A DNA stretch of 32,000 nucleotides, from positions 266,379 to 298,378 of the forward strand of contig JAPLKZ010000010.1 of the NCBI GenBank assembly GCA_026387835.1. The letters are read 5' to 3'. The notes below the pieces were generated by a model. It did not search any database. It was given only the letters and a program-made list of their open reading frames with translations, and was not told where the DNA came from. This stretch comes from Candidatus Saganbacteria bacterium (lineage in GTDB: Bacteria; Margulisbacteria; WOR-1; JAKLHX01). Each line of letters begins with the position of its first letter. The stretch's first letter is position 1. The position numbers and the translations under genes are program-made. Positions 7,785 to 28,649 of the stretch are shown piece by piece.

Positions 7785-9545
7785 CTAAAATGCCTGGCCG
7801 ATCGAGAAATGCAGAACGCCTTCAGAGAACATCTTATACGCGCCGACACCGAAATCAAGCCTGATGGGACCCATCGGAGTATTAAGTCTGAGACCGAAAC
7901 CCCTGCCGGATATAGAGTTGTCCAAATCGGGCCATCTGGGATGGTACCATGCTTTACCCAGATCATAGAAAAGCACTCCCTGAAATGTTTCGTTGAAAGT
8001 GTAGCGGTATTCGATATTGGCAACATATTTTTTGGTGCCGACCTGCGCCTGGGACGGATCATAGCCCCTGACCGTATTGGCACCGCCAACATAATAGAGC
8101 TCTCCGGGAGGGATATCGCCAACCCCCACGCCTACCCCAAAGTGAAAAGCAAGTACCTGTTTATCTGCCAATTTTAAGAACTGGTTCAAATCGACCGTGT
8201 TCTTTGTGAAATCGGTAGTTATATCCGGCTTGACCTTCCAGCCTTTTGTTATCCCGAAAGTCGCAAACCTTCCCGTGGACGGGTTCATCCAATTATCTCT
8301 TGTGTCATATGCCAGAGAAAACCCTATAGTGTTTGAAGTATAGGGATCAAAATATGTCACTGTCGGTTCGACCCTTTCTGAACCTAGGGTAAGAGTAACA
8401 TTCCATTCATCGTTGACGGGTTTATTTAAACTTAAGTCCCATCCGTTAAATTTCCCGTCGCTTTCAGGCTGGCCGATCAAATATACGTTCTTTCCGATCG
8501 TATACCATCTTCTTACGGTCGCCGAGACCTTATCACCAAGCTTGTCAGGCAGGAACCAGGGATACATGTACCTGAATTGATACGTAGACTGCTGCTGACC
8601 GGCCTGGCCACGGAGCAATATTCCCTGTCCGGTGCCGAAAACGTTCTCCGCACTAAGGTCGAGGAACCCGAACATTCCTTCGCGCTCTCCATAGCCGCCG
8701 CCGAAGTTGATCGTGTTGGTCTTGCTTTCTTTTACCTTAACCAGAAGTATTATCTTGTCAGGAGCAGCCGCAGGTTCGAAGTCCGGAGAAATATCCGAGA
8801 AGAATCCCAGGTTGAATATTCTTTTAAGGTCTTTTGCCAGGACCTTTTCGTTTAAGACCGTACCCGGCTTGCTTTTCATCTCCCTTAAGATCACATAATT
8901 CTTGGTCAGGGTGTTGCCGTCCAAAGCTATCTGTTCTATCGCTCCTTCGACAAGCTTAATTTGAAGGATGTCGGTGTCCGGATCGGTAGTGACGTTGACG
9001 ACCCTTTCAAGGATATATCCGTCCTTGTGATACATATCATCGATGGCCTTGATGTCTTCTTGGATAGATTTGAAAGACATTATCTCCCCCTGCTTTGAAC
9101 GCATCATGGAAAATATCTTTGCCGCGGGATAGACGCTGCATCCTTCTATTGTTATACCCTTCAGGCATGGGTTCTCGACCACATTGAAAGTCACCGCAGT
9201 GCCTTTTCTGGATTTGTTAAGATCCGTTGTCACATCCGCAAAATACCCCATTGCGTATATGGCTTTTACATCATTATTCAGACTTTGCTGGGTCATGCGG
9301 TCTCCAACGCGTATTGATACCTGCTCGAGTATTTTTCCCGACGGGATAATGAAATTACCTTTTATGTTTATTCCGGTTATAAGACTGTCAACGGTCACGG
9401 CATCTGTTTTTGTGACGGCAGGTCCGGTCAAGCTACCAAGATCTGGCGCGGACTTCAGGCTGAAATCTATCGCCAGCGAAATGCCTGACAGCAGAAAAAC
9501 CGCGGCCGAGATGCAAAATATTTTTTTCATGTCTGATACTTTCAT
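7785..9545 (-). CDS. Omp85-family outer-membrane protein assembly factor (BamA/TamA-like; POTRA repeats + C-terminal beta-barrel)
   Basis: Signal peptide, then POTRA-like repeats (for example NIKGNFIIPSGKILEQV, ITIEGCSVYPAAKIF, IALDGNTLTKNYVILREM), then a barrel ending in an aromatic terminal motif (HFSIGQAF). At 586 aa it is TamA-sized. Confidence 0.85.
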   Translation of the reverse strand: MKVSDMKKIFCISAAVFLLSGISLAIDFSLKSAPDLGSLTGPAVTKTDAVTVDSLITGINIKGNFIIPSGKILEQVSIRVGDRMTQQSLNNDVKAIYAMGYFADVTTDLNKSRKGTAVTFNVVENPCLKGITIEGCSVYPAAKIFSMMRSKQGEIMSFKSIQEDIKAIDDMYHKDGYILERVVNVTTDPDTDILQIKLVEGAIEQIALDGNTLTKNYVILREMKSKPGTVLNEKVLAKDLKRIFNLGFFSDISPDFEPAAAPDKIILLVKVKESKTNTINFGGGYGEREGMFGFLDLSAENVFGTGQGILLRGQAGQQQSTYQFRYMYPWFLPDKLGDKVSATVRRWYTIGKNVYLIGQPESDGKFNGWDLSLNKPVNDEWNVTLTLGSERVEPTVTYFDPYTSNTIGFSLAYDTRDNWMNPSTGRFATFGITKGWKVKPDITTDFTKNTVDLNQFLKLADKQVLAFHFGVGVGVGDIPPGELYYVGGANTVRGYDPSQAQVGTKKYVANIEYRYTFNETFQGVLFYDLGKAWYHPRWPDLDNSISGRGFGLRLNTPMGPIRLDFGVGAYKMFSEGVLHFSIGQAF

Positions 9546-9554
9546 TTTACTTTA

Positions 9555-9563
9555 ATTATACAA
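9555..9563 (-). promoter_or_regulatory. TATAAT -10 element (TTGTATAAT) 9 nt upstream of the Omp85 gene ATG
   Basis: Minus strand reads TTGTATAAT, TAAAGTAAA, ATG(9545). No Shine-Dalgarno. Confidence 0.35.
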
Positions 9564-9582
9564 ATTTATCCACACCTTGTTT

Positions 9583-12500
9583 TCAAAAAACGTACGCGTA
9601 CTGAAGCATGAGCTTGTAATATGTAACGCTCCAATCCTTGATATAAGGCATCGGTTCCCTGTAATAAGCCAGCGAATAATATCTGTCGATCTTCCAGGAT
9701 ATCTGATAATTGAAAGATGAATTGTTGTAAACCGTGTTCTGCTGCGTTGACTGCGCGTACTTCAACTGAATAAATATTTTATCAAAAAAGCCCTTAGCTA
9801 TGCCCACGGCCAGCTGTGGTTTGTCTGTATATCCGTACTCTCCGCGTCTTGTCGGAAGGTATTTTTCAAGGTCTCGTCCGAAATTGTAGTCCAGCGTAAA
9901 GCTCTCGAGCCCCAGCGCTTTTTCCACATTGCCTGTTATACTTTTTACAAGATATGAGTTTATGCTGGAGTTAAGGTAATCCACGAGTATCGCGTTCGTA
10001 TCCATAACCCCGCCCGTATTTGACAGGTTCAACGTGTCCCTGACAAAATCAGGCAGTATTATCTCTCTTATTTTATTCTGGTCATAAGTAGTGCTGACCA
10101 TCGGCGGTGTTTTTGAGGCGTCTTCCTTGAACGCGAAAAACTGGATGTTTAAAGGTCTCGCTTTTTCTTTGTCCGAAGGAATGCCGGTCGCTCTTGTCAG
10201 GACATATACTTTTTGCTGGGTATATTCCTGCGGCACACCGCTGTCGATCCCTGACGCAGGAGGCGTGGATTGAGCAACTTTTTCTTTTACCTTGACCTCG
10301 CTCTGCGCCGTGATCGACAGATAAGGCAGAGCAGAGGTTAAACCGCTGCCCCCCGAGAATATGGCTGTGTTTTTCATGATCATTGACCTGTTCAAGCTGA
10401 AATATTGCTCTTGTTTATCTTCGGATAGGATATTAAAATCCCTTCCCAGGATGTTAACCGTACCGCTTTTTATATCTACGTCTCCTATGATTGTCGGGGA
10501 TGACAGGAAACCTTTTAACTCAAGATTTTCAGAGGCTACTTCAAGGTTAATATTAGACATGTCCAGAGAGATCGGCCTGTTCGACTCCCCCTGGACAAGA
10601 TAGACCGATTTGCCGATATTAAGATCGACATCAAAACCGATGTCGACAAAAGGAGCTGCGTCGTTTTGTTTTCCCTGTGGGATTATTACCTTACCGTCAT
10701 GTATGTTAAGGTCTGCTGACAAAACAGCTTTTTGCCTCTTGCTTAATGACCCGTCCATTGATAGCGTGCCTTTCAGGCTCAGGCGCCTCAAATCCGCCTG
10801 CCCGGAATAAAACCCGGGGATGCCGACCGAACCTGTCACGGGAGCTGCTGCGATATTCAGCCAGATCTGTTTTTTGCCGATCAGGTCTGCGAGATCGATA
10901 TCTCCCGCGATAGAAAAAACATCGGATTTTTTCAGTGTCCTGTCTCCCGAGATAGTGCCGGAAAATCTTTTTATCGTCATATAGCTGTCCACTATCTTTA
11001 TGTCCGCGTCAAAGTCATACAAAGTCGATCTGATCTGGTCGATATTGACTACAGCATCATTTATAACGACACTTCCGTTTATTAAAGGTTTATCTATTGT
11101 CCCGCTTAAGTCGAGATCTACTTGCCCTCCTCCCGAAGTCCAACTCACCCCTTTAAACAGCGTAACAAGAAGTCCGGCATTGTCCCCGGCCAGATCTATC
11201 TTGATGTCGATATTTTTTCCCGAGACAAAAGGCATCCTGCCTTTTATAGAAGCTTTCTGCTTGCCGTTGCGTATATCAAGCTCCTCGATATCCAGCATGC
11301 CTCCGGAGTAACGGGCTTTTGAATAAAGGCTTTCGACATAAAAACCTCCCACGGTTGTTTTGCTTATAGAAAAGACGGCATTGATATTGGGATCGAAATA
11401 TTTGCCGTTTGCAGAAGCTTTAACTGTGAGCCTGCCGTCTATAGGAAAAGAAAGGCCGGTCGCGGTCTCTATCTTTTCCGCCGGAAGGTCTTTGGCGGAA
11501 ACATTCAGATCTATAGGACCTTTAACATCGATCATGCCCGATGCATCAAGATTTCCTCCATGATCTTTCAATGACAGGCCATTCAGGTATATTTTCCCGC
11601 TTTTATATGAGCCGGATACATCCAGGCTGTCAAAATCATATTGCCCCAACAGACCGTTGATTATCCTGACCGAGCCTTTGACTTCAACATCCGCTCCCCT
11701 GCCTTTTACAAATATGTTCGCTCCAAGCAAGCCGGATATTTTAAGTTTTGAAATATCGAGCGCGCGCTGCTGTTCTGCCGACGGTTTGACGCTCTTTGTC
11801 CATGCCTTCAGAAAAGCGTTATCCGGAGTGAACAAAACGTCTCCTTTTTGTGATCTATATCCTGACAGATCAGGGAACGAAATATCATCTTTTCTTATCG
11901 CCACCTTTATCGGGGCTTTGTCCGCAGATCCGATCATCCTCAACGCTTCGGAATAGACCATGCTGCTGATCTGGACCGCTGTACTTAACCCGCCCCTGTT
12001 TGTATAGATCTGACCGGAGTAAGACGGCTCTTTCCCGTTAAGGTCCAGCTCTGCGGAGACAGAATATCTGTCAGCGCCCTGACTGATGATAACCGGTCCT
12101 TCGACGGAAATGAATTTATCTTTATACTTTATTGTTCCGTCTAACCTATCCAGCTTTATCTCATTAAAGACAAGGTCTTTTACTCTAAAATTGAGCAAGG
12201 CCAAGGGATGAGAGAATTTCCCGCTGATATTTCCGTTGAACACGGCGCACCCATTGATCCTTGCGAACCTCTGTGTGAGCGGCCTGAGCCTTGCAAGATC
12301 GATATTTCCGCTTAAGTTTATGTCCGCTTTATCATCAAGCCCGGCCTTGCCGGATATAGAAATGTTAGAGTCGCTGTTTGTCAGGGTGATATTCTTTATC
12401 TCGAGTTTCTTTTCCTTTAATTGGAACGATGCTTTTGCCGTTTTGACCTCTTCGCCTGATAATATCGCATCCTTAAGTTCCATCTCGCATGAAACATCAA

Positions 12501-14232
12501 GCCCCTGCAGGATCTCAAGAGGTGTAGTCCCTTTGTCCGGCACTCCTTTTATTGCGACGTTCACATCCAGCAAACCTTTATTACTTCCTCTTTCGGAGGG
12601 TGCGAATTTGTCAATGATCTTAAAGTCGGCCACATTGGCATTCTTGGCCCTGATCATTATCGAGGAGGCCGTGCCTCTCGCAAGTGCCCCGCTGGCCTCT
12701 ATCTTAGAGTCACCGGCAAATAAAATAAACTTTTTTAGTTCAAAAGCTCCCTTTTTCAGTGAGGCCTGCGCCTCTGCAGAAGTAATGTCCTGCATAGATA
12801 TCCTTGCGTCCGAAATTTTCATCTGTGCATCAAAATTGATATTTTGAAACGGTCTTTTGAACAAGGAATCGTCGATCCGGCCAGAAATATTTCCTTCAAA
12901 ATAATCGAGGGTCCCTCGTACGCCATCCAGGAAATACGGGTTGCTGACACTGAATCTGCTTGCCGAAGCCCTGGCATAAAATGAAAGGTCCTTTTCTATC
13001 CTGCCGGAAGAGACGACCTTGGACTGCCCGTTGAATATTTCGACCCGGTCAAACGTGACGCATCCCCTCTCAAAAACAGCTGTGCCAGTTATCCTGTCGG
13101 CGTTTTGACCTGCAAGTGACGCATCAGAAAGAGAAGCTTCTGCTGTTAAATTGACATTCTCGCCAGCTCCGTTTATCAGGACGTTCCCGCTTGCAAGTCC
13201 TTTTGTTCCGGCAAGACCGCCGGAAAGTTTTTTCAGATCAGCTTTCGAAAAATTGACCTCCCCGTTAATAAGGGGTGTTTTTACCGCGAATAGCACAGCC
13301 AGGTTACCCGTTGTTGTCCCGCCGCAGAATGTTCCATTATCAGAACCGAGAACTAACCTTTTTTCATCAAAAGATATGTCAATTTTTCCGGAAAACGGTC
13401 TCCCATATATGTTCCCGTCAGAAATGCTTACGCTTCCTTTTATAAACATCTTCGGAAGTGTCTGGATATCAAGACTGACTGCGGTTTTACCGTTAAGGTC
13501 TGTAGCTTTTACGGCCGGGATCGCAAGATACTTGATCCACGGATTTGCTTTGAGCCCGGCAGCCGTCAATTTTATCCTTGCCCTTGAAGTTTTCAGGTTT
13601 ATTTTGCCTTCCGATCTTATCGGGGCCCCGTCCGACAGGCATGAAACCGCAAAAAATATCTTGTCTTTTTTGCTAAGATCGGCAGTCCCTGTCACATTGG
13701 CGATCTTTGAGACAAACGGCTGTTTGAGGTGTTCGGGACCGAATCCGGAAAGGTCCCTGAAATCTACGGTGCCGTTACGGATGAAGATCTTGCCCTTGAA
13801 CGGAGGAGGAGGGGCCCCGCCGCCGCCGGGATCCAGCAATTTCGCAAGGTTCCACGAACCGTCCTTTTCATGCTCCAAATAGACCTTAGGTTCGAAAACC
13901 TCGATCTTCCCTATAGCAGAGATAATGTCTTTTACCGCAAGCACCCGGATCACGTTGTAATGGACTTTCGCCCTTTTTATGGTTATTACGCTTCCCTGTG
14001 ACAGTTTTTTGAACTTCGCGATCCTGACATCGTTCAAAGTAATAGAGTCCAAAAGTATCTCATCGACCGAACCGACCGAGATCTCCCTGCCCATCATCGC
14101 GGACGCTTGTTTTGATATTTCTTCTTTTATGTTTGAGAAAATAGGGTTCTCAATATTGAAAAAGGGGATGCTTTGGGCGCAGGAAAACGTCAATAAAAAG
14201 ATAATACATCCACAACAGATCTTTTTGATCAT
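9583..14232 (-). CDS. tamB: TamB-like translocation and assembly module protein (AsmA-like/DUF490-type, 1549 aa)
   Basis: N-terminal signal-anchor helix, a very long repetitive beta-rich body, a C-terminal region typical of TamB, and adjacency to the Omp85 gene. Confidence 0.75.
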   Translation of the reverse strand: MIKKICCGCIIFLLTFSCAQSIPFFNIENPIFSNIKEEISKQASAMMGREISVGSVDEILLDSITLNDVRIAKFKKLSQGSVITIKRAKVHYNVIRVLAVKDIISAIGKIEVFEPKVYLEHEKDGSWNLAKLLDPGGGGAPPPPFKGKIFIRNGTVDFRDLSGFGPEHLKQPFVSKIANVTGTADLSKKDKIFFAVSCLSDGAPIRSEGKINLKTSRARIKLTAAGLKANPWIKYLAIPAVKATDLNGKTAVSLDIQTLPKMFIKGSVSISDGNIYGRPFSGKIDISFDEKRLVLGSDNGTFCGGTTTGNLAVLFAVKTPLINGEVNFSKADLKKLSGGLAGTKGLASGNVLINGAGENVNLTAEASLSDASLAGQNADRITGTAVFERGCVTFDRVEIFNGQSKVVSSGRIEKDLSFYARASASRFSVSNPYFLDGVRGTLDYFEGNISGRIDDSLFKRPFQNINFDAQMKISDARISMQDITSAEAQASLKKGAFELKKFILFAGDSKIEASGALARGTASSIMIRAKNANVADFKIIDKFAPSERGSNKGLLDVNVAIKGVPDKGTTPLEILQGLDVSCEMELKDAILSGEEVKTAKASFQLKEKKLEIKNITLTNSDSNISISGKAGLDDKADINLSGNIDLARLRPLTQRFARINGCAVFNGNISGKFSHPLALLNFRVKDLVFNEIKLDRLDGTIKYKDKFISVEGPVIISQGADRYSVSAELDLNGKEPSYSGQIYTNRGGLSTAVQISSMVYSEALRMIGSADKAPIKVAIRKDDISFPDLSGYRSQKGDVLFTPDNAFLKAWTKSVKPSAEQQRALDISKLKISGLLGANIFVKGRGADVEVKGSVRIINGLLGQYDFDSLDVSGSYKSGKIYLNGLSLKDHGGNLDASGMIDVKGPIDLNVSAKDLPAEKIETATGLSFPIDGRLTVKASANGKYFDPNINAVFSISKTTVGGFYVESLYSKARYSGGMLDIEELDIRNGKQKASIKGRMPFVSGKNIDIKIDLAGDNAGLLVTLFKGVSWTSGGGQVDLDLSGTIDKPLINGSVVINDAVVNIDQIRSTLYDFDADIKIVDSYMTIKRFSGTISGDRTLKKSDVFSIAGDIDLADLIGKKQIWLNIAAAPVTGSVGIPGFYSGQADLRRLSLKGTLSMDGSLSKRQKAVLSADLNIHDGKVIIPQGKQNDAAPFVDIGFDVDLNIGKSVYLVQGESNRPISLDMSNINLEVASENLELKGFLSSPTIIGDVDIKSGTVNILGRDFNILSEDKQEQYFSLNRSMIMKNTAIFSGGSGLTSALPYLSITAQSEVKVKEKVAQSTPPASGIDSGVPQEYTQQKVYVLTRATGIPSDKEKARPLNIQFFAFKEDASKTPPMVSTTYDQNKIREIILPDFVRDTLNLSNTGGVMDTNAILVDYLNSSINSYLVKSITGNVEKALGLESFTLDYNFGRDLEKYLPTRRGEYGYTDKPQLAVGIAKGFFDKIFIQLKYAQSTQQNTVYNNSSFNYQISWKIDRYYSLAYYREPMPYIKDWSVTYYKLMLQYAYVF

Positions 14233-14239
14233 TAGAAAA

Positions 14240-14248
14240 ATTATAACA
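14240..14248 (-). promoter_or_regulatory. Extended -10 element (TGTTATAAT) 7 nt upstream of the tamB ATG (leaderless geometry)
   Basis: Minus strand reads TGTTATAAT, TTTTCTA, ATG(14232). No Shine-Dalgarno. Confidence 0.45.
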
Positions 14249-14284
14249 CCTAATATATTTCGTGGAAAGGAGATTTTTCGGGGT

Positions 14285-15346
14285 CTATAACAAGCTTATC
14301 TGCGAGGCCGGCTGCTGAACATCTTTTTGATTTCTTGCCTGCGGAGGCGTTTTGCCGATATGCCGGTAAGCTGCTTCTGTAAGGACCCTTCCTTTTGGCG
14401 TGCGGTCCAAAAATCCTATCTGCATGAGATACGGTTCATAGACGTCTTCTATCGTGCCGGGATCTTCGCTTATCGCCGCAGATATGGTATCAACGCCTAC
14501 AGGACCGCCGGAAAATTTTTCAGCGATGACAAGAAGGATCTTACGGTCGACATTGTCCAGCCCCAGTTCATCTACGTCAAGATGCTTCAGGGCGGAAGCG
14601 GCGACTTCTTTTGTGATGGAACCGCCCGCTTTTACCTGGCACCAGTCCCTGACGCGCCTTAGAAGCCTGTTGGCTATGCGAGGTGTCCCCCTTGCTCTTC
14701 TTGCGATGGCAAGCGCACCTTCTTTGTCAATATGGACACTCAGTATCTCAGCAGCTGCTTCAATTATTTTTGTAAGCTCCTGAGGAGTGTAAAATTCCAG
14801 CCTGGAGATCATCCCGAACCTGTCGCGGAACGGCCCCGTCAACAGGCCTATCCGTGTCGTAGCGCCTATCAGCGTGAACTTCGGAAGGTCAAGCCTTATG
14901 GACCTTGCGCTCGGACCTTTGCCGATCACTATATCAAGGCCGAAATCCTCCATCGCCGGGTATAATATTTCTTCAACCACTTTGTTCAGGCGGTGTATCT
15001 CGTCAATAAAAAGGACATCATTCTCGGAGAGGTTGGTAAGTATCGCCGCGAGGTCCCCGGGCCTCTCGATTGCCGGGCCGGAAGTCGTTTTGATATTGAC
15101 TCCCATCTCGTTCGCCAGGATGTTCGCGAGGGTCGTCTTGCCAAGCCCGGGAGGACCGTAGAGCAGAATATGCTCCAGTGTCTCGCCGCGCTTTTTAGCG
15201 GCGTCCATGACGACCGTTATGCTTTCTTTGACTTTTTCCTGGCCGATATAGTTGTCTATCCTGCGCGGCCGTAGCCCGCTGAAAGCGGCGTCTTCATCGC
15301 TTCTCCCCAGAGTGACGATCCTGCTTTTATCCTCGTTCATTGACAT
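14285..15346 (-). CDS. ruvB: Holliday junction branch-migration helicase RuvB
   Basis: Walker [12 protein letters not shown], Walker [10 protein letters not shown], and an overall RuvB-like sequence. The true start may be the second ATG at 15340 (see the promoter at 15348-15356). Confidence 0.93.
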
Positions 15347-15347
15347 A

Positions 15348-15356
15348 AGTTTATCA
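15348..15356 (-). promoter_or_regulatory. Extended -10-like element (TGATAAACT) 7 nt upstream of the second in-frame ATG of ruvB
   Basis: Minus strand reads TGATAAACT, T, ATG TCA ATG. The -10 element lies 1 nt from ATG 15346 and 7 nt from ATG 15340. Confidence 0.3.
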
Positions 15357-15376
15357 TAGAAAAGGCGGTATAGCCC

Positions 15377-17035
15377 TTAACTTTGGCCATAGATCCTTAT
15401 ATACTGCCAGTAGCTTTCAAGGACTTTTTTTACGTACAATTTTGTCTCGGCTAACGGGATGCTTTCAACAAACTCGTCGATATCGGAATGATCGATCCTG
15501 TTCAGCCATTTATCCACATTGCCCGCTCCTCCGTTATATGAGGCTAGCGCAAGATATTTATCTCCGCCGAATCTTTTAAGCAGCTGTGAAAGATAATAGA
15601 CCCCCATTTTAATATTCAAGTTGGGATTGAAAAGATATTTCGTCCTGTAAGGCCTGAGATAAAGCCTTGTTGCTATCCCTCTTCCTGTACGGGGCATTAT
15701 CTGAGCAAGGCCTCTCGCGCTTGACCTTGAAACAGCTCTGGGGTTAAAGCGGCTTTCTTCCCTGATCAGCGCGAACACAAGGTACGGATCGACGCCGTAT
15801 TTTTCGGCGACGGCAAATACCTGGCTCTTAAAAGCTGTCGGATAAGCAAGGTTCATCGCGAGATATTTTTCGCTGTCGAGATCCGTAGAATAGAAATCGT
15901 ACTCTCCGGCCTTTTCAAGTGTTTTTATGGAGTGATAATAGTTCTTCTGCAGATTGAGTAAAAGAGAGAGGCATAGCTTTCCGGTCTTTATGTCTCGCTC
16001 GCTTGAGCTTGAATAGACCATTGTTTTTGCTTCGCTGGCCGCATCTTCAAAATATTTTATGCTGAGGAGCTCTTTAAATTTTTCAAAGTGGATATTGGCT
16101 ATTGCCAGCTCGCTGAGCTTCGGAAGGCTGACTCCCGACTCCGGGACACTTTGGACCTGGTAATTAAGGATCTGGCAGGCGCGCATGCCATAATACGTGT
16201 ACGGATAATTTACAGTTATATACTCTAATAGTTTGTGCTGCTCGCCGACCAGGCCGGCTTTTTCGGCACTCTTTGCCCGCCAAAAAACGCATTTTGAGAC
16301 TATCCGCGGATCGGCATCTCCGGGATACTGCCCGAGCTTTATAAAAGCACTTTCAAAATCCCCGCTCTTGTAGAGAATAAATCCTTCGCGCCAAACTTCG
16401 TTTGCTGAGTCATCAGGAGAAATGTCTACTGCAAAAAGTGACCTGGTCTGCTTATATATTTGCTGCACCGAGCTTAATATCGAAACTGCTCCCATCTGAT
16501 TTATTTTTTTCTTTGAGACCTTCGTTGTCCTGCTCTTGGGATAATTTACCACTATTTCCGAATAGCGTTCTGCGGCCTCGTCCAAATATCCCAGTTTCTC
16601 AAGACACTGCGCTGCCCTGAAAATGACCACGTCCCTGGAAAAGACCGGGACATTGAAAGAAAGGGATTTTTCAAAATTGGCTATCGCGTTTAAAAAGTCG
16701 CCTTTTCCGGCATACAGCTCGCCGAGCCTGTAATACGCCTTGCCGACAAAAACGCTCTCAGGGAATTTATTTGTCAGATTGGTATATTCTATTTCGGCCT
16801 GTTGTTTATTGCCCGAGACGTCAAATGCCGCTGCCAGTCTGAACGCTGCATGATCATTAAGGATATACGAATCATTTTCTGCCAAAGGCGCAAGCATGTT
16901 CACTGCCTGCTGGAACCTGCCTTTATTGATAAAATAACAGGCTTTTTTATAATCGGCCGAGGACTGTGAGTAACAAAATGATGTGCCGGAAAGAATTACT
17001 GCAAATATTAATCCTAGAACTCCGGAGTTTTTCAT
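15377..17035 (-). CDS. Soluble lytic murein transglycosylase (N-terminal TPR-like repeats + C-terminal SLT domain)
   Basis: SLT catalytic motif ALIREESRFNPRAVSRSSARGLAQIMP. N-terminal signal peptide. Helical repeat region. Confidence 0.85.
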   Translation of the reverse strand: MKNSGVLGLIFAVILSGTSFCYSQSSADYKKACYFINKGRFQQAVNMLAPLAENDSYILNDHAAFRLAAAFDVSGNKQQAEIEYTNLTNKFPESVFVGKAYYRLGELYAGKGDFLNAIANFEKSLSFNVPVFSRDVVIFRAAQCLEKLGYLDEAAERYSEIVVNYPKSRTTKVSKKKINQMGAVSILSSVQQIYKQTRSLFAVDISPDDSANEVWREGFILYKSGDFESAFIKLGQYPGDADPRIVSKCVFWRAKSAEKAGLVGEQHKLLEYITVNYPYTYYGMRACQILNYQVQSVPESGVSLPKLSELAIANIHFEKFKELLSIKYFEDAASEAKTMVYSSSSERDIKTGKLCLSLLLNLQKNYYHSIKTLEKAGEYDFYSTDLDSEKYLAMNLAYPTAFKSQVFAVAEKYGVDPYLVFALIREESRFNPRAVSRSSARGLAQIMPRTGRGIATRLYLRPYRTKYLFNPNLNIKMGVYYLSQLLKRFGGDKYLALASYNGGAGNVDKWLNRIDHSDIDEFVESIPLAETKLYVKKVLESYWQYIRIYGQS

Positions 17036-22598: not shown

Positions 22599-22630
22599 GA
22601 GTATCGAGAGGTTATTTTGAAAATTTCAGT
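22599..22630 (-). promoter_or_regulatory. Alternative-sigma-type promoter candidate (ACTGAAAT-N16-CGATACTC) for the FGGY kinase gene
   Basis: Minus strand reads ACTGAAAT (22630-22623), 16 nt, CGATACTC (22606-22599). Same motif and spacing as the five other sites. Confidence 0.45.
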
Positions 22631-22691
22631 GAATTTATAATTCCGCCCAAAGATCATACAATTATCCTGACGGTATTTTAGAGGGGTGGCC

Positions 22692-22729
22692 TCAAAAGAA
22701 AAACCTCCAAACAGGAATGGAGGTTTTTT
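22692..22729 (-). terminator. Rho-independent terminator candidate after the small-ORF pair (potentially bidirectional)
   Basis: Stem AAAAACCTCC (22699-22708) pairs with GGAGGTTTTT (22719-22728) around a 10-nt loop. The minus-strand transcript ends in UUUUUCUUUU. A T6 run also follows on the plus strand. Confidence 0.55.
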
Positions 22730-22749
22730 GCTTGAGAGAACAGCAACCG

Positions 22750-22968
22750 CTAATTCTTGCAGTTGCTCAGTTTGAGAGAACACCATTTAGCAAGATCGCC
22801 GATCATAACGAACCTGAAGGATGCTTTCAGGTCGGGCGATCCGCTTAAATGACACTGTCTGTAAAGGGTCGCTGTATAAGGTTTTGTCTCCCTTATTTCT
22901 TCGAGATAACCTTTAAAGATCATCTCGTTAAGCACTTTTAGCATTTTCGTATCGTTTAAGTTGAACAT
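22750..22968 (-). CDS. Small hypothetical protein (72 aa), second gene of a two-gene module
   Basis: GGAGA Shine-Dalgarno lies inside the end of the upstream ORF, with a 4-nt intergenic gap. The terminator begins about 20 nt after the stop. There is weak, unverified resemblance of LSGSPDLKASFRFVMIGD to the L-x-G...R-[IV]-G-D core of RelE/ParE-type toxins, but the protein is too short to be a complete one. Confidence 0.5.
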   Translation of the reverse strand: MFNLNDTKMLKVLNEMIFKGYLEEIRETKPYTATLYRQCHLSGSPDLKASFRFVMIGDLAKWCSLKLSNCKN

Positions 22969-22972
22969 TTTG

Positions 22973-23164
22973 TTATCTCCAGTAAGAGACCGTTCTTCCG
23001 GGGGCTTGCCCCATGGAAAAACGGTTGGATATTATATTTATGAAACTTCCGGCTTCGTTCTTGATCAGTTCGGACAGGGCGGCGGAAGTGTTGCTCTTTA
23101 CATACCTCTTGCCGCTTATCTCTATCTTTTCTATTGTCGTGTTAAGTCTTTCTGCGTCTGTCAT
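22973..23164 (-). CDS. Small hypothetical protein (63 aa), first gene of a two-gene module
   Basis: The ORF track starts at GTG 23182. I prefer ATG 23164, preceded by GAAGGGGAAAGAG, because the proximal promoter (-10 at 23192-23184) would start transcription downstream of 23182. There is weak, unverified resemblance of SNTSAALSELIKNEA to helix 2 of ribbon-helix-helix regulators. Confidence 0.5.
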   Translation of the reverse strand: MTDAERLNTTIEKIEISGKRYVKSNTSAALSELIKNEAGSFINIISNRFSMGQAPGRTVSYWR

Positions 23165-23183
23165 TGTCTCTTTCCCCTTCACT

Positions 23184-23216
23184 TATTTATCGTCAATAAT
23201 TTCAGGAAATTTCACT
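23184..23216 (-). promoter_or_regulatory. Alternative-sigma-type promoter candidate (AGTGAAAT-N16-CGATAAATA), proximal promoter of the small-ORF pair
   Basis: Minus strand reads AGTGAAAT (23216-23209), 16 nt, CGATAAATA (23192-23184). The -10 9-mer is identical to the site at 29364-29356. Confidence 0.5.
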
Positions 23217-23217
23217 C

Positions 23218-23248
23218 AAACCGGTCTTTTTTAAAGAATCTCCGGTTT
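23218..23248. other. Interrupted inverted repeat / hairpin between the two tandem promoters
   Basis: AAACCGG (23218-23224) pairs with CCGGTTT (23242-23248). An inner TCTTT/AAAGA stem is present. On the plus strand it is followed by TTTTGTCCTGTTTTG. Confidence 0.35.
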
Positions 23249-23257
23249 TGTCCTGTT

Positions 23258-23290
23258 TTGATATCGGCTTGAATTTTTGAATATTTCACT
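23258..23290 (-). promoter_or_regulatory. Alternative-sigma-type promoter candidate (AGTGAAAT-N16-CGATATCAA), distal promoter of the small-ORF pair
   Basis: Minus strand reads AGTGAAAT (23290-23283), 16 nt, CGATATCAA (23266-23258). With the two preceding bases the -10 region reads GCCGATAT. Confidence 0.5.
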
Positions 23291-23315
23291 GTTTTAGAAT
23301 ATACTTACATATAAT

Positions 23316-24434
23316 ATGTACGGGGTACTTGTTCTTGAGGACGGGATGTATTTTGAAGGCGAGGCTTTCGGGGCTGAGGGGGTATCTTTCGGGGAAGCCG
23401 TTTTCAATACGAGCATGACCGGATACCAGGAGATACTTACCGACCCCTCCTATAAATACCAGATAATAACGATGACCTGCCCGCTTATTGGCAACTACGG
23501 GGTCAATAAGGACGATATGGAATCCTTAAAGCCCCATTGCTCCGGTTTTGTCGTCAGGGAAAAAAGCAACATCTTCAGCAACTGGAGGGCGGAGACCGAC
23601 CTTGATTCTTTCCTGAAAAAGCACAATGTCATCGGCCTCTCCGAAATAGACACCAGGGCTTTGACAAGGCACATAAGGAGCAAAGGAGCTATGAAAGCCG
23701 TGATATCGTCATCAGAGACGGACATCAAGGATCTGCACAAAAAAGTGGCCGCTTCCGCTTCGATCGTCGGGATGGACCTTGTAAAGGATGTAAGCTGTGA
23801 AGAACCGTATTCATGGGAAAAGGGCCGCAGGGATTTTTTGACCGATCCGAAAAAGAAGAATAAAGATTCATTCAATGTTGTCGTTTTTGATTTCGGCGTG
23901 AAGTTCAATATCCTGAGAAAACTTCATTCTTTGGGGTGTAAAGTAACGGTAGTCCCCGCCGGCACAAAATCTGAAGAGATTTTTAAGTTAAAGCCGGACG
24001 GGATCCTGCTGTCAAACGGACCCGGAGATCCCAAAGCCGTGGCCTACGCGATAGAGACGGTACAAAAGCTCGTAGGCAAGTTCCCGATATTCGGTATCTG
24101 CCTCGGCCATCAGATATTATCGCTGGCGTTCGGAGGCAAGACCTATAAACTGAAATTCGGCCACAGGGGCGCCAACCACCCGGTAAAGAATCTTTTGACG
24201 GGAAGGATCGAGATCACATCCCAGAACCACGGGTTCGCGGTGGACCCCGGGTCCTTCAGGAACACGAACATCGATCTCACCCATATAAACCTGAACGACG
24301 GAACGTGCGAAGGGCTGTGCCATAAGAACCTGCCGGCTTTTTCGGTCCAGTATCACCCGGAAGCGTCCCCCGGCCCGCATGACAGCGAGTATTTGTTCAC
24401 AAAGTTCATTGACATGATGAAAAAGGGGCTGTGA
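23316..24434 (+). CDS. carA: Carbamoyl-phosphate synthase small (glutamine amidotransferase) subunit CarA
   Basis: N-terminal LVLEDGMYFEGEAFG...FNTSMTGYQEILTDPSY, catalytic GICLGHQ, and HGFAV...QYHPEASPGPHD. No carB follows. Confidence 0.93.
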   Translation: MYGVLVLEDGMYFEGEAFGAEGVSFGEAVFNTSMTGYQEILTDPSYKYQIITMTCPLIGNYGVNKDDMESLKPHCSGFVVREKSNIFSNWRAETDLDSFLKKHNVIGLSEIDTRALTRHIRSKGAMKAVISSSETDIKDLHKKVAASASIVGMDLVKDVSCEEPYSWEKGRRDFLTDPKKKNKDSFNVVVFDFGVKFNILRKLHSLGCKVTVVPAGTKSEEIFKLKPDGILLSNGPGDPKAVAYAIETVQKLVGKFPIFGICLGHQILSLAFGGKTYKLKFGHRGANHPVKNLLTGRIEITSQNHGFAVDPGSFRNTNIDLTHINLNDGTCEGLCHKNLPAFSVQYHPEASPGPHDSEYLFTKFIDMMKKGL

Positions 24435-25447
24435 TGGAAAGGATCCTTAAAAGCAAATATAAGATCCTTGAAAAGATAGCGGAGTTATCGTCCCACAACA
24501 CATACTCCGGCGCTTTTGCCGACACCGAAAAACCGCTCATAATAAAGATCTTCAACAGGGGCATATTGAACAGCACCCTTACAAAAAAACTTAAGAAAGA
24601 TGTCGTCAGGCTTACGAAGCTTGAACACCAGTTCATCCCGAGGGTCTACGACGGCGACTACGGCTGGCAAGGTTTCTATTTTGTCAGGGACTTTGTGGAG
24701 GGAAAAACGCTGGATGAGACGAAAAAACCGTTTGAGATCGAGGCCGCGTGCGAGCTTATGACAAAAGTCTGCGGACTTCTTTCTTTCGCGCATGAAAACG
24801 GCATAGCCCACGGGTCGCTTACGCCGAACAATGTCTTCATCTCAAAAAAGAACGTCTTCATATCCGATTTTGGCATAGAATCGGCCGTCAACCAGATGCT
24901 CGAGCAAAAGACCATGTCGCTTTTTTCTGAAAACGCAGCGTTCTTCGCCCCCGAAATGGTCCTTGGGGAGGAAGCTAGCATCCTTTCCGACATCTACCAG
25001 GCGGGATTATTGTTTTATCTGATACTTACCGGCAGGCTGCCTGCCGACGGGCAGAAAGGGCTTTCAAGCGCCCTGACAAGCCTTGGCGGCACAGTCCCCA
25101 CGCCTTCATCGGTGAACGGCAAGGTGCCGAGATACCTGGACGAGATCGTTCTTAAATGCCTGGAAAAAGATCCTCTTCTGCGCTTTGCCGGTGCCGCGCA
25201 GCTTTCCGAAAGCATCAACAATAAAGTATTGATGCTCCCGAAAACCGAGATCTTCGAACTGCCGGAGATCGATCTGAACATCGAAGAGGAGTCAAGAAAA
25301 GACGAGCCGGTATTAGTCGAACTGCCCAACATCGAAGAAAAAAGTGATAAAATCAATCTGTTCAGGTGGATAATGTTCGCTGTCTGGGCTGCAATAGCGG
25401 CAGGGATAATATATTCTCTGATACAGATATTTATAATAGGTGAATGA
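24431..25447 (+). CDS. Ser/Thr protein kinase-like protein, predicted pseudokinase, with a C-terminal TM anchor
   Basis: The Hanks-type fold is recognisable: LIIKIF lysine, SDFG, APE, and DIYQAGLLFYLILTGRLP. However, the glycine-rich loop is degenerate (AELSSHNTYSG) and the catalytic loop HRDLKPxN reads HGSLTPNN, so it has no catalytic Asp. It ends in the TM helix IMFAVWAAIAAGIIYSLIQIFII. The start is either GTG 24431 or ATG 24434; both overlap the carA stop. Confidence 0.75.
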   Translation: MMERILKSKYKILEKIAELSSHNTYSGAFADTEKPLIIKIFNRGILNSTLTKKLKKDVVRLTKLEHQFIPRVYDGDYGWQGFYFVRDFVEGKTLDETKKPFEIEAACELMTKVCGLLSFAHENGIAHGSLTPNNVFISKKNVFISDFGIESAVNQMLEQKTMSLFSENAAFFAPEMVLGEEASILSDIYQAGLLFYLILTGRLPADGQKGLSSALTSLGGTVPTPSSVNGKVPRYLDEIVLKCLEKDPLLRFAGAAQLSESINNKVLMLPKTEIFELPEIDLNIEEESRKDEPVLVELPNIEEKSDKINLFRWIMFAVWAAIAAGIIYSLIQIFIIGE

Positions 25448-26037
25448 TGGCTGATCTAGTTATTTATTTTATGCTCTCGGCCGTGGCACTCGCGGTGATA
25501 GGATATTTTATCGGCGCGGGAAAGATCTCTTTGAAGCCGGTCACTTTGCTTGTCATGTTCCTGATCCTGGTGCTGCCGGTCGGGCTGAATCTTTTTATCT
25601 GGATCTACTCGGGGACGATCCCCGAAGTGTTCGTCCCGGACGTACTTGGAAGTCCGGGCAGTGACGCGGTCGCAGTGCTTGAGAAGACTGGCCTTAAAGG
25701 CGAAATAGCCGGGATATCCTTCTCAAAAGAACCGGGCGGCACCGTCATCAGCCAGCAGCCCGAAGGCGGTAAAAAAGTCAAGGCGGGCCGCCTTGTCAAA
25801 CTGATCATCAGTGCAAGGGAAAGATCGGTCACCGTACCGAACCTTATCGGAAAGACAAGCACGGAAGCGGAAAGCATTCTTATTTCTTTCGGCCTTAATA
25901 TCGGCCAGGTGTTCGAAAGCCCGGGCGACGGAACGCTCGGTATAGTGACAGACCAGAAACCGGCCGTGGGAGAGGTCGTATCGCTGGGGTCCAACGTCTC
26001 GGTCACTATAACCGTAGGAAATGAAACCCGTGATTAA
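25444..26037 (+). CDS. Membrane protein with two N-terminal TM helices and two PASTA domains
   Basis: PASTA repeats VPDVLGSPGSDAVAVLEKTGLKGEI...GTVISQQPEGGKKVKAGRLVKLIIS and VPNLIGKTSTEAESILISFGLNIGQV...GIVTDQKPAVGEVVSLGSNVSVTIT. ATGA overlap with the upstream kinase-like gene. Confidence 0.8.
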   Translation: MMADLVIYFMLSAVALAVIGYFIGAGKISLKPVTLLVMFLILVLPVGLNLFIWIYSGTIPEVFVPDVLGSPGSDAVAVLEKTGLKGEIAGISFSKEPGGTVISQQPEGGKKVKAGRLVKLIISARERSVTVPNLIGKTSTEAESILISFGLNIGQVFESPGDGTLGIVTDQKPAVGEVVSLGSNVSVTITVGNETRD

Positions 26038-26677
26038 GATAGCACCTTCAATATTATCAGCCGACTTCTCCAGGCTGGGGGAAGAGATCAGGGCTGTGGA
26101 AGCGGCCGGCGCGGACCTCATACATATCGACGTTATGGACGGGCATTTTGTGCCTAACATCACGATCGGCCCCGCGATCGTCAGAGCTGCAAGGCGCGTA
26201 ACGGCTCTTCCTCTGGATGTCCATCTTATGATAGAGGATCCCGCTAAATATATCCGTTCTTTTCTTGACGCGGGCAGTGATATAATCTCTTTTCACATCG
26301 AAACTGCAAAGGATCCTGACAAAGTGATCCGGGAGATCAAAAATTCCGGCAAGGGCGCGGCGATCGCGCTGAACCCTGACACAGACATAAAAAAAATAGA
26401 ACCATATCTGGAAAAGATAAAGATGGTCCTTGTAATGTCTGTATTCCCGGGGTTTGAAAAGCAGGTTTTCATCCCGAGTGTCCTCCCGAACATAAAAAAG
26501 CTGCGCGATATCATTTCGGCAAAAAAGCTGGATGTCGACATCGAGGTGGACGGCGGCATAAACCCGATCACGTCTAAAGACGTCATTTCCGCCGGCGCAA
26601 ATATCCTTGTCGCGGGATCTGCGGTCTTTTACGGCGATGATTACAAAAAAGCCATTCGGTCAATAAGAAATGCTTGA
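26021..26677 (+). CDS. rpe: Ribulose-phosphate 3-epimerase
   Basis: IAPSILSADFSRLGEE, HIDVMDGHFVPNITIGP, and VDGGIN motifs. Overlaps the PASTA gene end by 17 nt. Confidence 0.93.
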   Translation: MKPVIKIAPSILSADFSRLGEEIRAVEAAGADLIHIDVMDGHFVPNITIGPAIVRAARRVTALPLDVHLMIEDPAKYIRSFLDAGSDIISFHIETAKDPDKVIREIKNSGKGAAIALNPDTDIKKIEPYLEKIKMVLVMSVFPGFEKQVFIPSVLPNIKKLRDIISAKKLDVDIEVDGGINPITSKDVISAGANILVAGSAVFYGDDYKKAIRSIRNA

Positions 26678-27795
26678 TAAATAAAATGACCCCACAAAAA
26701 AATGGCGCTGATATAAAATTCATGAGAGAGGCGCTAAAGCTTGCCTCAAAAGTTTTGGGCCTTGTCTCGCCAGATCCCGCAGTCGGAGCGGTGATCGTCA
26801 AGAACGGGAAGATCATCAGCAAAGGATATCATAATAAATTTTCAACCCCCCACGCCGAGGACTATGCGATCAGGAAAGCAGGGAAATCTGCAAAAGGATC
26901 TACCCTTTATATCAACCTTGAGCCCTGCTGCCATTATGGCAACAATCCGCCGTGCACTGATAACATCATAAGGTCCGGGATAAAAAGGGTCGTCGCTGCC
27001 ATGAAAGACCCTAATCCTCTCGTCAACGGCAAGGGCTTTAAAAGGTTGAAAAAGGCCGGAATAAAAGTTGACGTCGGCTTACTTGAAAATGAGGCCGCAG
27101 TGCTCAACGAGTTTTTTGTCGGGCATATCACGACAAAAAGACCTTTTGTGATACTGAAGATGGCGATGAGCCTTGACGGAAAGATTGCCACTAAACTCGG
27201 GGAGAGCCGCTGGATTTCCGGAGATAAATCAAGGGAATTTGTGCATTATTTAAGGGGCATCGTCGATGCGGTTATGGTAGGCATCGGAACTTTGCTTAAG
27301 GATGATCCTCTGCTTAATGTGAGAAATGCAAAAGGCAAAAATCTCACTGACCCGCTGAAGATAATAATCGATCCTGAAGCAAGGGTCCTCCTATGCTCAA
27401 AAGTCCTACAAGACCCGTCAAGGGTTATCGTTGCCGTATCTGAAGCGGCCCCGGCTATCAGGGTAAAAAAGCTGGAAGGCATCGGCGCAAAAGTGATAAA
27501 GGTAAGGTCCCGTAAAGGAGAAATGGACCTTGGCCATCTTTTATCAACCCTTGGAAAACAAAAAATAACAAGTATCATGATCGAGGGCGGCGGGAATCTG
27601 GCGGCCTCTGCCATCGGGACTGGGATTGTCGATAAGGTCGTGTTCATCGTTGCACCAAAGATAATCGGTGGCAAGACGTCCCCTACCCCGGTTGAAGGCA
27701 AAGGGATCGATATCCTGGCGCGCGCACTCCGCCTGAAAAATGTCTCCACAAGAAGGCTTGGCGAGGATATAATAATAGAAGGATATTTAAAATGA
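26674..27795 (+). CDS. ribD: Bifunctional riboflavin biosynthesis protein RibD (pyrimidine deaminase / uracil reductase)
   Basis: Deaminase zinc motifs HAEDYAI and PCCHYGNNPPC. C-terminal reductase domain (MSLDGKIA...ESRWISG). The start is either TTG 26674, overlapping the rpe stop, or ATG 26686. Confidence 0.9.
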   Translation: MINKMTPQKNGADIKFMREALKLASKVLGLVSPDPAVGAVIVKNGKIISKGYHNKFSTPHAEDYAIRKAGKSAKGSTLYINLEPCCHYGNNPPCTDNIIRSGIKRVVAAMKDPNPLVNGKGFKRLKKAGIKVDVGLLENEAAVLNEFFVGHITTKRPFVILKMAMSLDGKIATKLGESRWISGDKSREFVHYLRGIVDAVMVGIGTLLKDDPLLNVRNAKGKNLTDPLKIIIDPEARVLLCSKVLQDPSRVIVAVSEAAPAIRVKKLEGIGAKVIKVRSRKGEMDLGHLLSTLGKQKITSIMIEGGGNLAASAIGTGIVDKVVFIVAPKIIGGKTSPTPVEGKGIDILARALRLKNVSTRRLGEDIIIEGYLK

Positions 27796-28649
27796 AGGTC
27801 CTTGAACTTATTTTCATAACGATGCAACCGTCAAGATGGTGGCGTTGCAGCGTGATACTTATTTCTTTGTTCTTTACCGGAGGAGCATGGAATATTATAA
27901 TCATATTGAAAATGATCGTGGCTTTCCTGATATTTTCTCTCCTCACCGGTGCCATCAATATAATGGACGATATAGCCGACCTTGAAAAAGATAAGCAGGA
28001 CCTATTAAAGCGCACCAAGCCGCTGGCAAGCGGCGAACTGTCCGTGAACAAGGCCGAGTTTTCCGTCGCGATGCTGCTAATAGGCTCGTTTGTCGCCGCT
28101 TTTTTCTTCGGGCCGCTGTTCGGCGCTGCAGCGGTAGGTTATTTCTTCATCGAACTGTGCTATTATCTCTTTTTCAAAAAAATAGCCGTGGTCGACAGCC
28201 TCGCGATCGCTGGTGAAACCTGCATGCTGTTCATTGCCGGTACTGTCGCCTCGGGGAAAGTTCTTTCTTCGTGGCTTTTTGTCTTTGTAGTCGCGTCATC
28301 GGTCTTCCTGGTCTTCTGCGAGAACAAAAGGCGCCTTGCGCTGTCACCGGAAGACCAGGGACTTTTAAAAAAATACGGTGCGGCATCTTTGGGGCGGCTT
28401 ATCGATATCTCCGCTCCTTTTGTCCTTATCATCTATTCTTTATATACTCTGATATCTCCCGACGGGATAAGGTTCAATCTTGTGTATACCGTTCCCTTTG
28501 CCATGTATGCTGTCTACAGGATCATGATGCTGATAGATGAAAAGACCTCTGACAAAGGGTTTGAAAAAATACTGCTAAAGGATAGGAATTTCATTGTTGC
28601 AATTGGATCGTGGGCGGCGCTTCTTCTGGTATTGACCTCGATATTTTAA
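27792..28649 (+). CDS. UbiA-superfamily prenyltransferase, decaprenyl-phosphate phosphoribosyltransferase-like
   Basis: First Asp-rich motif NIMDDIADLEKDKQDLLKRTKPLASG (N-x3-D-x3-D followed by K-R-x-x-P-[LI]-A-S-G), about 8 TM helices, and a second polar loop ENKRRLALSPEDQGLLKKY. ATGA overlap with the ribD stop. Confidence 0.65.
   Translation: MKVLELIFITMQPSRWWRCSVILISLFFTGGAWNIIIILKMIVAFLIFSLLTGAINIMDDIADLEKDKQDLLKRTKPLASGELSVNKAEFSVAMLLIGSFVAAFFFGPLFGAAAVGYFFIELCYYLFFKKIAVVDSLAIAGETCMLFIAGTVASGKVLSSWLFVFVVASSVFLVFCENKRRLALSPEDQGLLKKYGAASLGRLIDISAPFVLIIYSLYTLISPDGIRFNLVYTVPFAMYAVYRIMMLIDEKTSDKGFEKILLKDRNFIVAIGSWAALLLVLTSIF

Follow-up and report, generated by a model that had tools for sequence, protein, structure and literature searches.

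Has the kinase gene found in two pieces in a Candidatus Saganbacteria genome been broken by a sequencing error, or has one bacterial lineage divided a PASTA kinase between two proteins and kept them for another purpose? The question is raised by two overlapping open reading frames (ORFs), ORF1 and ORF2, in a 32,000-nt stretch of contig JAPLKZ010000010.1 (hereafter the window, whose coordinates are used throughout). An original prediction, made from the DNA letters alone, had described the pair as a PrkC/PknB-type PASTA kinase split into a catalytically dead kinase-like protein and a separate membrane PASTA protein. We find that both ORFs match PASTA kinases, that the split recurs throughout a phylum-wide family and that ORF1 has lost several motifs of an active kinase. 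On balance, we favor the explanation that ORF1 and ORF2 are two subunits of a PASTA-kinase-derived sensor that works without phosphotransfer. We know of no cultured representatives of the host lineage.

24434..25447, + strand: ORF1, membrane-anchored kinase-like protein and predicted pseudokinase (Pfam Pkinase, NF033483, AlphaFold2 (AF2), Foldseek)
25444..26037, + strand: ORF2, transmembrane (TM) hairpin followed by two PASTA domains (Pfam PASTA twice, NF033483, PDB matches, AF2)

ORF1 and ORF2 match consecutive parts of a PASTA kinase

The ORF1 product matches the Pfam Pkinase domain (PF00069) with 80.8 bits against a cut-off of 31.7 (E = 1.4e-22), and the ORF2 product matches the PASTA domain (PF03793) twice, with 80.4 bits against a cut-off of 23.2 (E = 9e-23). 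The hidden Markov model (HMM) check proposed in the original prediction thus places both assignments above their cut-offs. The top NCBIfam family of both ORFs is NF033483, the Stk1-family PASTA domain-containing Ser/Thr kinases, a model of 563 positions. Residues 2-264 of ORF1 cover positions 2-268 of this model (149.1 bits), and residues 34-194 of ORF2, which include the second TM helix and both PASTA units, cover positions 335-499 (80.5 bits). Because both best match the same family on non-overlapping and ordered stretches, ORF1 and ORF2 are, by profile alignment, the colinear halves of a PknB/PrkC-type PASTA kinase. Neither is close to the curated equivalog cut-off of NF033483 (450 bits for the whole protein), and the kinase domain, single TM helix and PASTA repeats that define the family are not on one polypeptide here. 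Common descent with the NF033483 kinases is supported by the best match of both parts, by their colinear coverage and by a conserved gene neighborhood.

Structural comparisons point in the same direction. The closest PDB sequence match of ORF1 is Staphylococcus aureus Stk1/PknB (E = 1e-26), found together with StkP and Mycobacterium tuberculosis PknB, and matches to PknA (4e-16) and to eukaryotic kinases (1e-13) are far weaker. An AF2 model of ORF1, which drew on 36 family sequences, has a mean predicted local distance difference test (pLDDT) score of 89.6 and shows a kinase fold, a disordered linker (residues 286-307) and a C-terminal helix (310-337), in line with the Hanks-type fold ending in a TM helix that had been read from the sequence. 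PknA, PknB and Stk1 lead the Foldseek matches of this model, with template modelling scores of 0.75-0.88 normalised to the target. The profile score and the bilobal predicted fold place ORF1 in the Hanks-type kinase superfamily. For ORF2, the PDB matches are PASTA regions of PknB from S. aureus and from M. tuberculosis, and the AF2 model (pLDDT 83) has helices at residues 2-24 and 32-58 followed by two beta/alpha units. With the gathering score exceeded, two repeats present and the modelled secondary structure in agreement, ORF2 belongs to the PASTA proteins.

We also considered a defense-system origin, as the second-best NCBIfam match of ORF1 is the MADS6 kinase. This reading was rejected on the much better match to PASTA kinases and on the housekeeping synteny of the locus.

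The division into two genes is conserved across Margulisiibacteriota

The sequence and the ORF list, from which all coordinates and overlaps were read, agree with the earlier report of an ATGA at the junction of the two ORFs (25444-25447). The ORF1 stop (TGA, 25445-25447) overlaps both candidate starts of ORF2, ATG 25444 (197 aa) and ATG 25447, so that the ORFs, which lie in different frames, share 1-4 nt depending on the ORF2 start. An NCBI protein identical to ORF2 (100%) uses ATG 25447 and has 196 aa. ORF1 has 338 aa when counted from GTG 24431 (24431..25447, + strand), and an alternative start at ATG 24434 (337 aa) overlaps the carA stop as TGATG. ATG 24434 is most likely the start used, because the N-terminus of the ORF1-type family reads 'MERxLKSKY' and because the identical (100%) NCBI protein, from Candidatus Saganbacteria, has 337 aa. 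The contig that carries both identical NCBI proteins measures 363,715 bp. The alternative starts are a minor correction to the earlier description, and an upstream stop codon is overlapped whichever start is chosen for either ORF.

A short overlap with a change of frame is what one indel would give if it had split a normal single-polypeptide PASTA kinase in this metagenome-assembled genome. The original prediction had raised this concern and suggested a survey of fused and split versions in related genomes. With each GTDB species represented by one genome, a pattern scan gave 55 family loci (L001-L055), labelled almost entirely as Margulisiibacteriota, Saganbacteria or WOR-1, along with 11 unrelated ordinary kinases from other phyla. 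At every one of the 52 loci where the kinase-like ORF is readable to its stop, that ORF ends and a separate ORF with two TM helices and PASTA domains then begins. The second ORF encodes 138-275 aa and starts between -59 and +54 nt from the first, mostly within 0-7 nt. Its frame relative to the first ORF is 0, 1 or 2 in comparable numbers, so that neither a frameshift error common to all loci nor programmed readthrough can account for the split. These genomes were assembled independently, every ORF2 has its own start and an additional TM helix, and the degeneration of the catalytic loop described below is independent of the junction.

Two large protein searches likewise gave no fused member. 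About 85 clusters at 90% identity contain proteins of 311-371 aa only, none of them with a PASTA domain, and an exhaustive profile search found 14 full-length family representatives of 326-354 aa in a 50%-identity library. The comparative data refute an assembly or sequencing artefact, to which we assign practically no weight, and the split appears real and old within a phylum-wide family. Since it has been kept in some 50 related genomes, the pair is a working module and not a sequencing error.

For ORF2, a word-based homologue search gave six close relatives only, and a wider set was obtained by tblastn of the loci and an iterated HMM. All 54 ORF2-type sequences (53 loci and the window) have TM1, TM2 and a 'PE' motif, followed by PASTA units that number one in 10 members, two in 38 and three in six. 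The genes rpe and/or ribD lie downstream in almost all loci, with rpe after the pair in most of the 55. This bears out the suggestion that the neighborhood of rpe echoes PrkC loci and reflects common ancestry, which is further supported by the colinearity with NF033483 and by the published Firmicutes locus (PMC6449344). Upstream of the pair, carA is found in the closest clade only (L001-L008), and the genes in this position are unrelated and vary between clades. Neither PP2C nor Firmicutes-like upstream genes occur in the six distant loci that were inspected.

A few observations from the survey stand apart. A 'Candidatus Falkowbacteria' locus (MFFY01000004.1) and a WOR-1 locus (METP01000046.1), the pair L021 and L022, share the same tblastn coordinates and identities, and one further family locus (L052) is labelled Omnitrophota. 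These two labels probably reflect mis-binned or mislabelled contigs and not spread of the family beyond Margulisiibacteriota. Proteins of extreme length, up to 7165 aa, hold the top ranks of the profile search; each has 2-10 kinase-like stretches, and the sum of their scores places them above true family members. These multi-kinase giants (P0105-P0245) are an odd population unrelated to the ORF1/ORF2 pair.

ORF1 lacks the catalytic base and retains part of the nucleotide pocket

To locate the catalytic positions, 54 family sequences were aligned with Stk1 and M. tuberculosis PknB (sequence identical to PDB 1MRU). Three stretches of ORF1 stand out.

24809..24832, + strand: degenerate counterpart of the HRDxKPxN catalytic loop, H127-G-S-L-T-P-N-N134, aligned with Stk1 HRDIKPQN
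24866..24874, + strand: retained DFG motif, residues 146-148 (D in 54/54, F invariant, G variable as G/V/I/C/L/T)
24650..24691, + strand: family signature from D74 to R86 and the Asp that follows, beta4-beta5 hairpin to gatekeeper (D74 = PknB D76, R86 = PknB M92)

The missing catalytic Asp, first noted in the HGSLTPNN of ORF1, proves to be a property of the entire family. The column of the HRD Asp (the catalytic base, D138 in PknB) contains no Asp among 54 sequences, and is occupied by Ala (30), Ser (10), Gly (8), Glu (4), Asn (1) and Cys (1). The loss extends to other elements of the active site. The Gly-rich loop, which clamps the ATP phosphates, reads ExPFSxTYxG in the family and has no Gly at the three canonical positions; AELSSHNTYSG occupies this place in ORF1, as quoted before. 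The alphaC Glu column (PknB E59) is mainly basic (K38, D7, R5, E1). The activation-loop phosphorylation sites (PknB T171/T173) are replaced by Gln and Ala, with no conserved Ser or Thr. The gatekeeper (PknB M92) is an invariant Arg (R86 in ORF1), a residue that is unusual at this position of a kinase fold.

Other parts of the nucleotide-binding machinery are retained, including the VAIK-type Lys, DFG and APE motifs that had been pointed out in ORF1. The beta3 Lys (PknB K40) is Lys in 53/53 sequences (K39 in ORF1, in the motif LIIK), the catalytic-loop Asn (PknB N143) is Asn in 54/54 (N134) and the DFG Asp (PknB D156) is Asp in 54/54. APE (residues 173-175 in ORF1), the subdomain IX Asp and the subdomain XI Arg, which belong to the fold core, are also conserved. 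Compared with a competent kinase, the family lacks the HRD Asp, the salt bridge between beta3 Lys and alphaC Glu and the Gly-rich loop, and has the Mg-binding Asn and the DFG Asp. This pattern is that of a pseudokinase, which may still bind a ligand in its nucleotide pocket and appears to keep a dimerisation surface. Of the label 'catalytically dead', the motif losses hold, and the alphaC Glu and gatekeeper Arg add to them; the deadness itself is what we infer from these losses.

The gatekeeper Arg lies within the family signature DGDYGWQGFYFVRE, in which the segment DGDYGWQG shows no variation among the 53 sequences that span it. The segment DGDYGWQGFYFVR (residues 74-86, 24650-24688) is almost unchanged down to members of about 35% identity, far above the rest of ORF1. 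Such conservation suggests that residues 74-86 are likely a partner-binding or structural element. R10 and D76 of PknB form the inter-subunit salt bridge of the back-to-back N-lobe dimer. In the ORF1 family, the R10 equivalent is kept as Lys or Arg and the D76 equivalent as Asp in 53/53 sequences covering these columns.

Three predicted TM helices may join the two proteins at the membrane

The predicted membrane and periplasmic elements of the pair are as follows.

25358..25441, + strand: ORF1 C-terminal TM helix, residues 310-337 (AF2 helix; hydropathy segment in every family member)
25447..25617, + strand: ORF2 TM1 (residues 2-24), basic loop GKISLKP and TM2 (32-58) (AF2 helices)
25624..25812, + strand: PASTA 1, residues 61-123 (iterated HMM; repeat found in every family member)
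25825..26013, + strand: PASTA 2, residues 128-190 (Pfam, iterated HMM, AF2)

ORF1 is predicted to have its N-terminus inside and its C-terminus outside, given the basic residues on the N-terminal side of its TM helix and the short stretch of about five residues after it. The two TM helices, two PASTA domains and K-rich loop described earlier for ORF2 are recovered here, and the loop between the helices is rich in Lys or Arg in nearly all ORF2-type proteins. From this basic loop and the few charges at the ORF2 N-terminus, the positive-inside rule would place the N-terminus outside, the loop inside and the PASTA domains in the periplasm. The C-terminus of ORF1 and the N-terminus of ORF2 would then lie on the same outer side of the membrane, as expected if the break had occurred in the first short periplasmic loop of an ancestor with three TM helices.

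Conservation within the helices is marked. In the ORF1 helix, G325 is nearly invariant and Y328 invariant, and the ORF2 helices conserve Y8, P45 (invariant, in TM2) and Y55, with N49 conserved in the close clade only. By contrast, the juxtamembrane linker of ORF1 is unconserved and modelled with low pLDDT, and this difference suggests specific packing among the TM helices. PASTA 1 conserves A75, L84, Q104, P106, G109, V112, K113, G115 and R116.

A proposed sensor without phosphotransfer and the alternatives to it

The explanation that we favor begins with an ancestral PknB/PrkC-type gene (kinase, TM helix and PASTA repeats, linked to rpe as in Firmicutes) that would have been divided, early in Margulisiibacteriota, into two genes coupled in translation. 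ORF1 would be a cytoplasmic kinase fold tethered by its C-terminal TM helix; it no longer has a catalytic base, an alphaC Glu, a Gly-rich loop or phosphorylation sites in the activation loop, and it still has its fold together with the beta3 Lys, both Mg-binding residues (Asn and Asp) and the equivalents of the residues that form the salt bridge of the PknB back-to-back dimer. ORF2 would insert as a hairpin and present one to three PASTA domains to the periplasm, and the single helix of ORF1 and the two of ORF2 would pack as one bundle. The PASTA domains may bind a peptidoglycan precursor or fragment, or may place the complex at sites of wall synthesis. Such input would cause the pseudokinase to change its conformation or oligomeric state, and the pseudokinase's output would be that of a scaffold or an allosteric regulator of a cytoplasmic partner and not that of an enzyme. 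A broader claim is that Margulisiibacteriota possess phosphorylation-independent PASTA signaling, with sensor and dead-kinase output on separate proteins joined by a three-helix bundle only; this we regard as a tentative proposal, somewhat more apt to fail than to hold.

Some features of the family weigh against this explanation. The catalytic-loop Lys (PknB K140) is kept in 30 of the 54 members, with Ser in 12 and Thr in 10, so that its loss, earlier read from the Thr of the window protein, holds for the clade of that protein and not across the family. Four of the 54 members read HGE[LI]KPSN, with Glu at the position of the HRD Asp, and some clades may be less degenerate than that of the window protein. 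With K39, N134 and D146 invariant, the protein could still bind nucleotide or perform some chemistry. The position of PknB L33, at the dimer interface, is polar in the family. All of these except the last, together with the confidently predicted kinase fold, would fit an ORF1 that is still an enzyme, either an atypical kinase with another base or a nucleotide-dependent enzyme (ATPase or AMPylase), regulated in trans by the PASTA subunit; SelO-type kinase folds, for example, are AMPylases. Such an enzyme would, however, have Ala, Ser, Gly, Asn or Cys as its catalytic base in 50 of 54 members, Lys or Arg in the alphaC Glu column in 43 of 53, a phosphate clamp devoid of its canonical glycines, an invariant Arg at the back of the adenine pocket and no conserved Ser or Thr in its activation loop, and we find it distinctly unlikely.

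Alternatively, a separate Hanks kinase that is active might have ORF1 as its pseudokinase partner or its substrate, the two forming a heterodimer through the conserved back surface of the N-lobe and ORF2 serving for localisation. Pseudokinases of the HER3/KSR type are allosteric partners of this kind. The dimer residues conserved throughout the family favor such a role, for which Clostridioides difficile CD2148 and PrkC provide a precedent (PMC9674922), and PknB is itself allosterically activated by back-to-back dimerisation (PMC13434768). The polar L33 equivalent argues against it, as does the lack of a second kinase in the stretches of about 13 kb around the 55 loci and in the 32-kb window, and we consider this partnership unlikely. 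It is also conceivable that ORF1 and ORF2 act independently, as an unrelated membrane scaffold and a stand-alone periplasmic PASTA protein that tunes, for example, a penicillin-binding protein or a hydrolase, their adjacency being a relic. Kinase-independent effects have been reported for the PASTA domains of StkP and PknB, and mycobacterial growth is perturbed when the PknB PASTA domain is overexpressed alone (PMC4632501). Against this, near-zero spacing between ORF1 and ORF2 persists across the phylum, in members as low as about 35% in identity, although the genes upstream vary freely, and the conserved polar, aromatic and small residues in all three TM helices suggest specific packing. Independent action thus seems to us very unlikely.

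Comparison with known systems

The pair shares with the PASTA Hanks kinases (PknB, PrkC, Stk1/PknB and StkP; NF033483) the kinase fold, the order of kinase, linker, TM helix and PASTA repeats and the equivalents of the R10 and D76 dimer residues. It differs in its division into two polypeptides, which together have three TM helices, where those kinases have one polypeptide and a single TM helix, and ORF1 differs from these kinases in the absence of the HRD Asp, alphaC Glu, Gly-rich loop and activation-loop Thr and in the gatekeeper Arg. In Firmicutes, the conserved prpC-prkC-cpgA operon is flanked by rpe and thiN as neighboring genes (PMC6449344). The link to rpe is common to both loci, whereas PP2C (prpC) and cpgA/rsgA are not adjacent to the Saganbacteria pair. 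The host of the pair also has outer-membrane machinery (BamA and TamB), unlike the comparison systems. Back-to-back dimerisation, the surface of which appears to be retained in ORF1, has been proposed as the step by which PASTA kinases are allosterically activated, and StkP needs it in vivo (PMC13434768).

The nearest functional precedent for ORF1, by analogy, is C. difficile CD2148, a TM-anchored PrkC relative that has no PASTA domains, lacks the catalytic Asp and Asn and is probably inactive (PMC9674922). No autophosphorylation of CD2148 was detected; it becomes phosphorylated in vitro only if PrkC is also present, modulates CwlA's PrkC-dependent phosphorylation and is proposed to have a modulatory role in envelope and division control (PMC9674922). 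Compared by description only, CD2148 and ORF1 both carry a PASTA-kinase-like domain followed by a single TM anchor, and in both the catalytic Asp is replaced. CD2148 differs in lacking the catalytic-loop Asn that is invariant in the ORF1 family, in having no adjacent PASTA gene and in coexisting with an active PrkC.

Seven families of bacterial pseudokinases have been described (ActPs1, ActPs2, ActPs3 including MviN/MurJ, GLW, CP1, DYD and DLHK), in all of which the VAIK Lys is substituted and in most of which the DFG Asp is lost (bioRxiv 10.1101/2025.01.12.632604). MviN ties a pseudokinase to peptidoglycan synthesis (PMC12599244). Like ORF1, these families are degraded kinase folds, often with a TM helix C-terminal to the domain. 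The ORF1 family has both the Lys and the DFG Asp without exception, and what it has lost is the HRD Asp, the alphaC Glu and the Gly-rich loop. Because it keeps the VAIK Lys and DFG Asp, the ORF1 family falls outside the seven described families at the level of motifs. The papers on these families (PMC12599244; bioRxiv 10.1101/2025.01.12.632604) mention neither Margulisbacteria nor a separate PASTA partner. Another membrane pseudokinase, EssB/YukC of type VIIb secretion, is monotopic and serves as a dimerising scaffold (PMC12599244). Unlike ORF1, EssB/YukC has all three catalytic motifs degraded, works within a secretion machine and lacks a PASTA partner, and it is absent among the listed sequence and fold matches of ORF1.

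A split and apparently non-catalytic PASTA-kinase module is not described in the literature searched, in which no paper combines 'PASTA domain' with 'Margulisbacteria'. The activation of PASTA kinases has been called highly debated (PMC13434768). This family has long kept its PASTA sensor, kinase fold and dimer residues, and catalysis and the covalent linkage appear to have been discarded. Such long retention in the apparent absence of catalysis argues for a function independent of phosphotransfer. If this is true, the pair would amount to a PASTA kinase dissected by nature, one that reveals a conserved, non-catalytic core function in a diderm periplasm, namely N-lobe dimerisation, driven by ligand or localisation, as a scaffold or allosteric switch. 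It would also be a minimal two-protein system, open to heterologous reconstitution, in which a transmembrane signal must pass through contacts between TM helices. ORF1 would add a type of pseudokinase, with HRD-only loss and a gatekeeper Arg, outside the seven catalogued bacterial families. PASTA-based sensing would be extended to a diderm candidate phylum. Margulisiibacteriota (formerly WOR-1) are a sister group of Cyanobacteria.

Genomic context of the pair

The genes around ORF1 and ORF2 lie on the same strand.

23316..24434, + strand: carA, carbamoyl-phosphate synthase small chain (Pfam); its stop overlaps the ORF1 start
26021..26677, + strand: rpe, ribulose-phosphate 3-epimerase (Pfam PF00834, 257.6 bits); overlaps the end of ORF2 by 17 nt
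26674..28649, + strand: ribD and a UbiA-family prenyltransferase gene (Pfam), each overlapping its upstream gene by 4 nt

The six genes carA-ORF1-ORF2-rpe-ribD-ubiA (23316-28649, + strand) overlap successively by 1-17 nt, and a promoter and terminator scan gave only weak consensus matches, with no convincing + strand terminator from 23316 to 28649. Because stops and starts overlap throughout and no convincing terminator lies between them, this arrangement looks like one translationally coupled operon, to which ribD and the UbiA-family gene probably also belong. No PP2C or FHA protein is encoded by any ORF scanned in the window (150 aa or longer), in keeping with the earlier remark that no PP2C phosphatase is adjacent. 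The position of rpe beside ribD links ribulose-5-phosphate metabolism with riboflavin synthesis, and a module resembling a wall sensor is retained inside this metabolic operon.

On the opposite strand, an envelope and DNA-repair cluster occupies 7785-17035.

7785-9545, - strand: Omp85/BamA with POTRA repeats
9583-14232, - strand: TamB/DUF748/YhdP-like protein, 1549 aa
14285-15346, - strand: RuvB
15377-17035, - strand: TPR-SLT lytic transglycosylase

BamA and TamB are thus found in the window as first described, and together with the SLT lytic transglycosylase they are consistent with a diderm envelope of the host. The interval of about 700 bp (22600-23315) that separates carA from the divergent gene for an FGGY sugar kinase contains short ORFs only, and an Rfam scan of the window, including this interval, gave no match. 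Promoter-like hexamers are present at 23258-23305, immediately 5' of carA.

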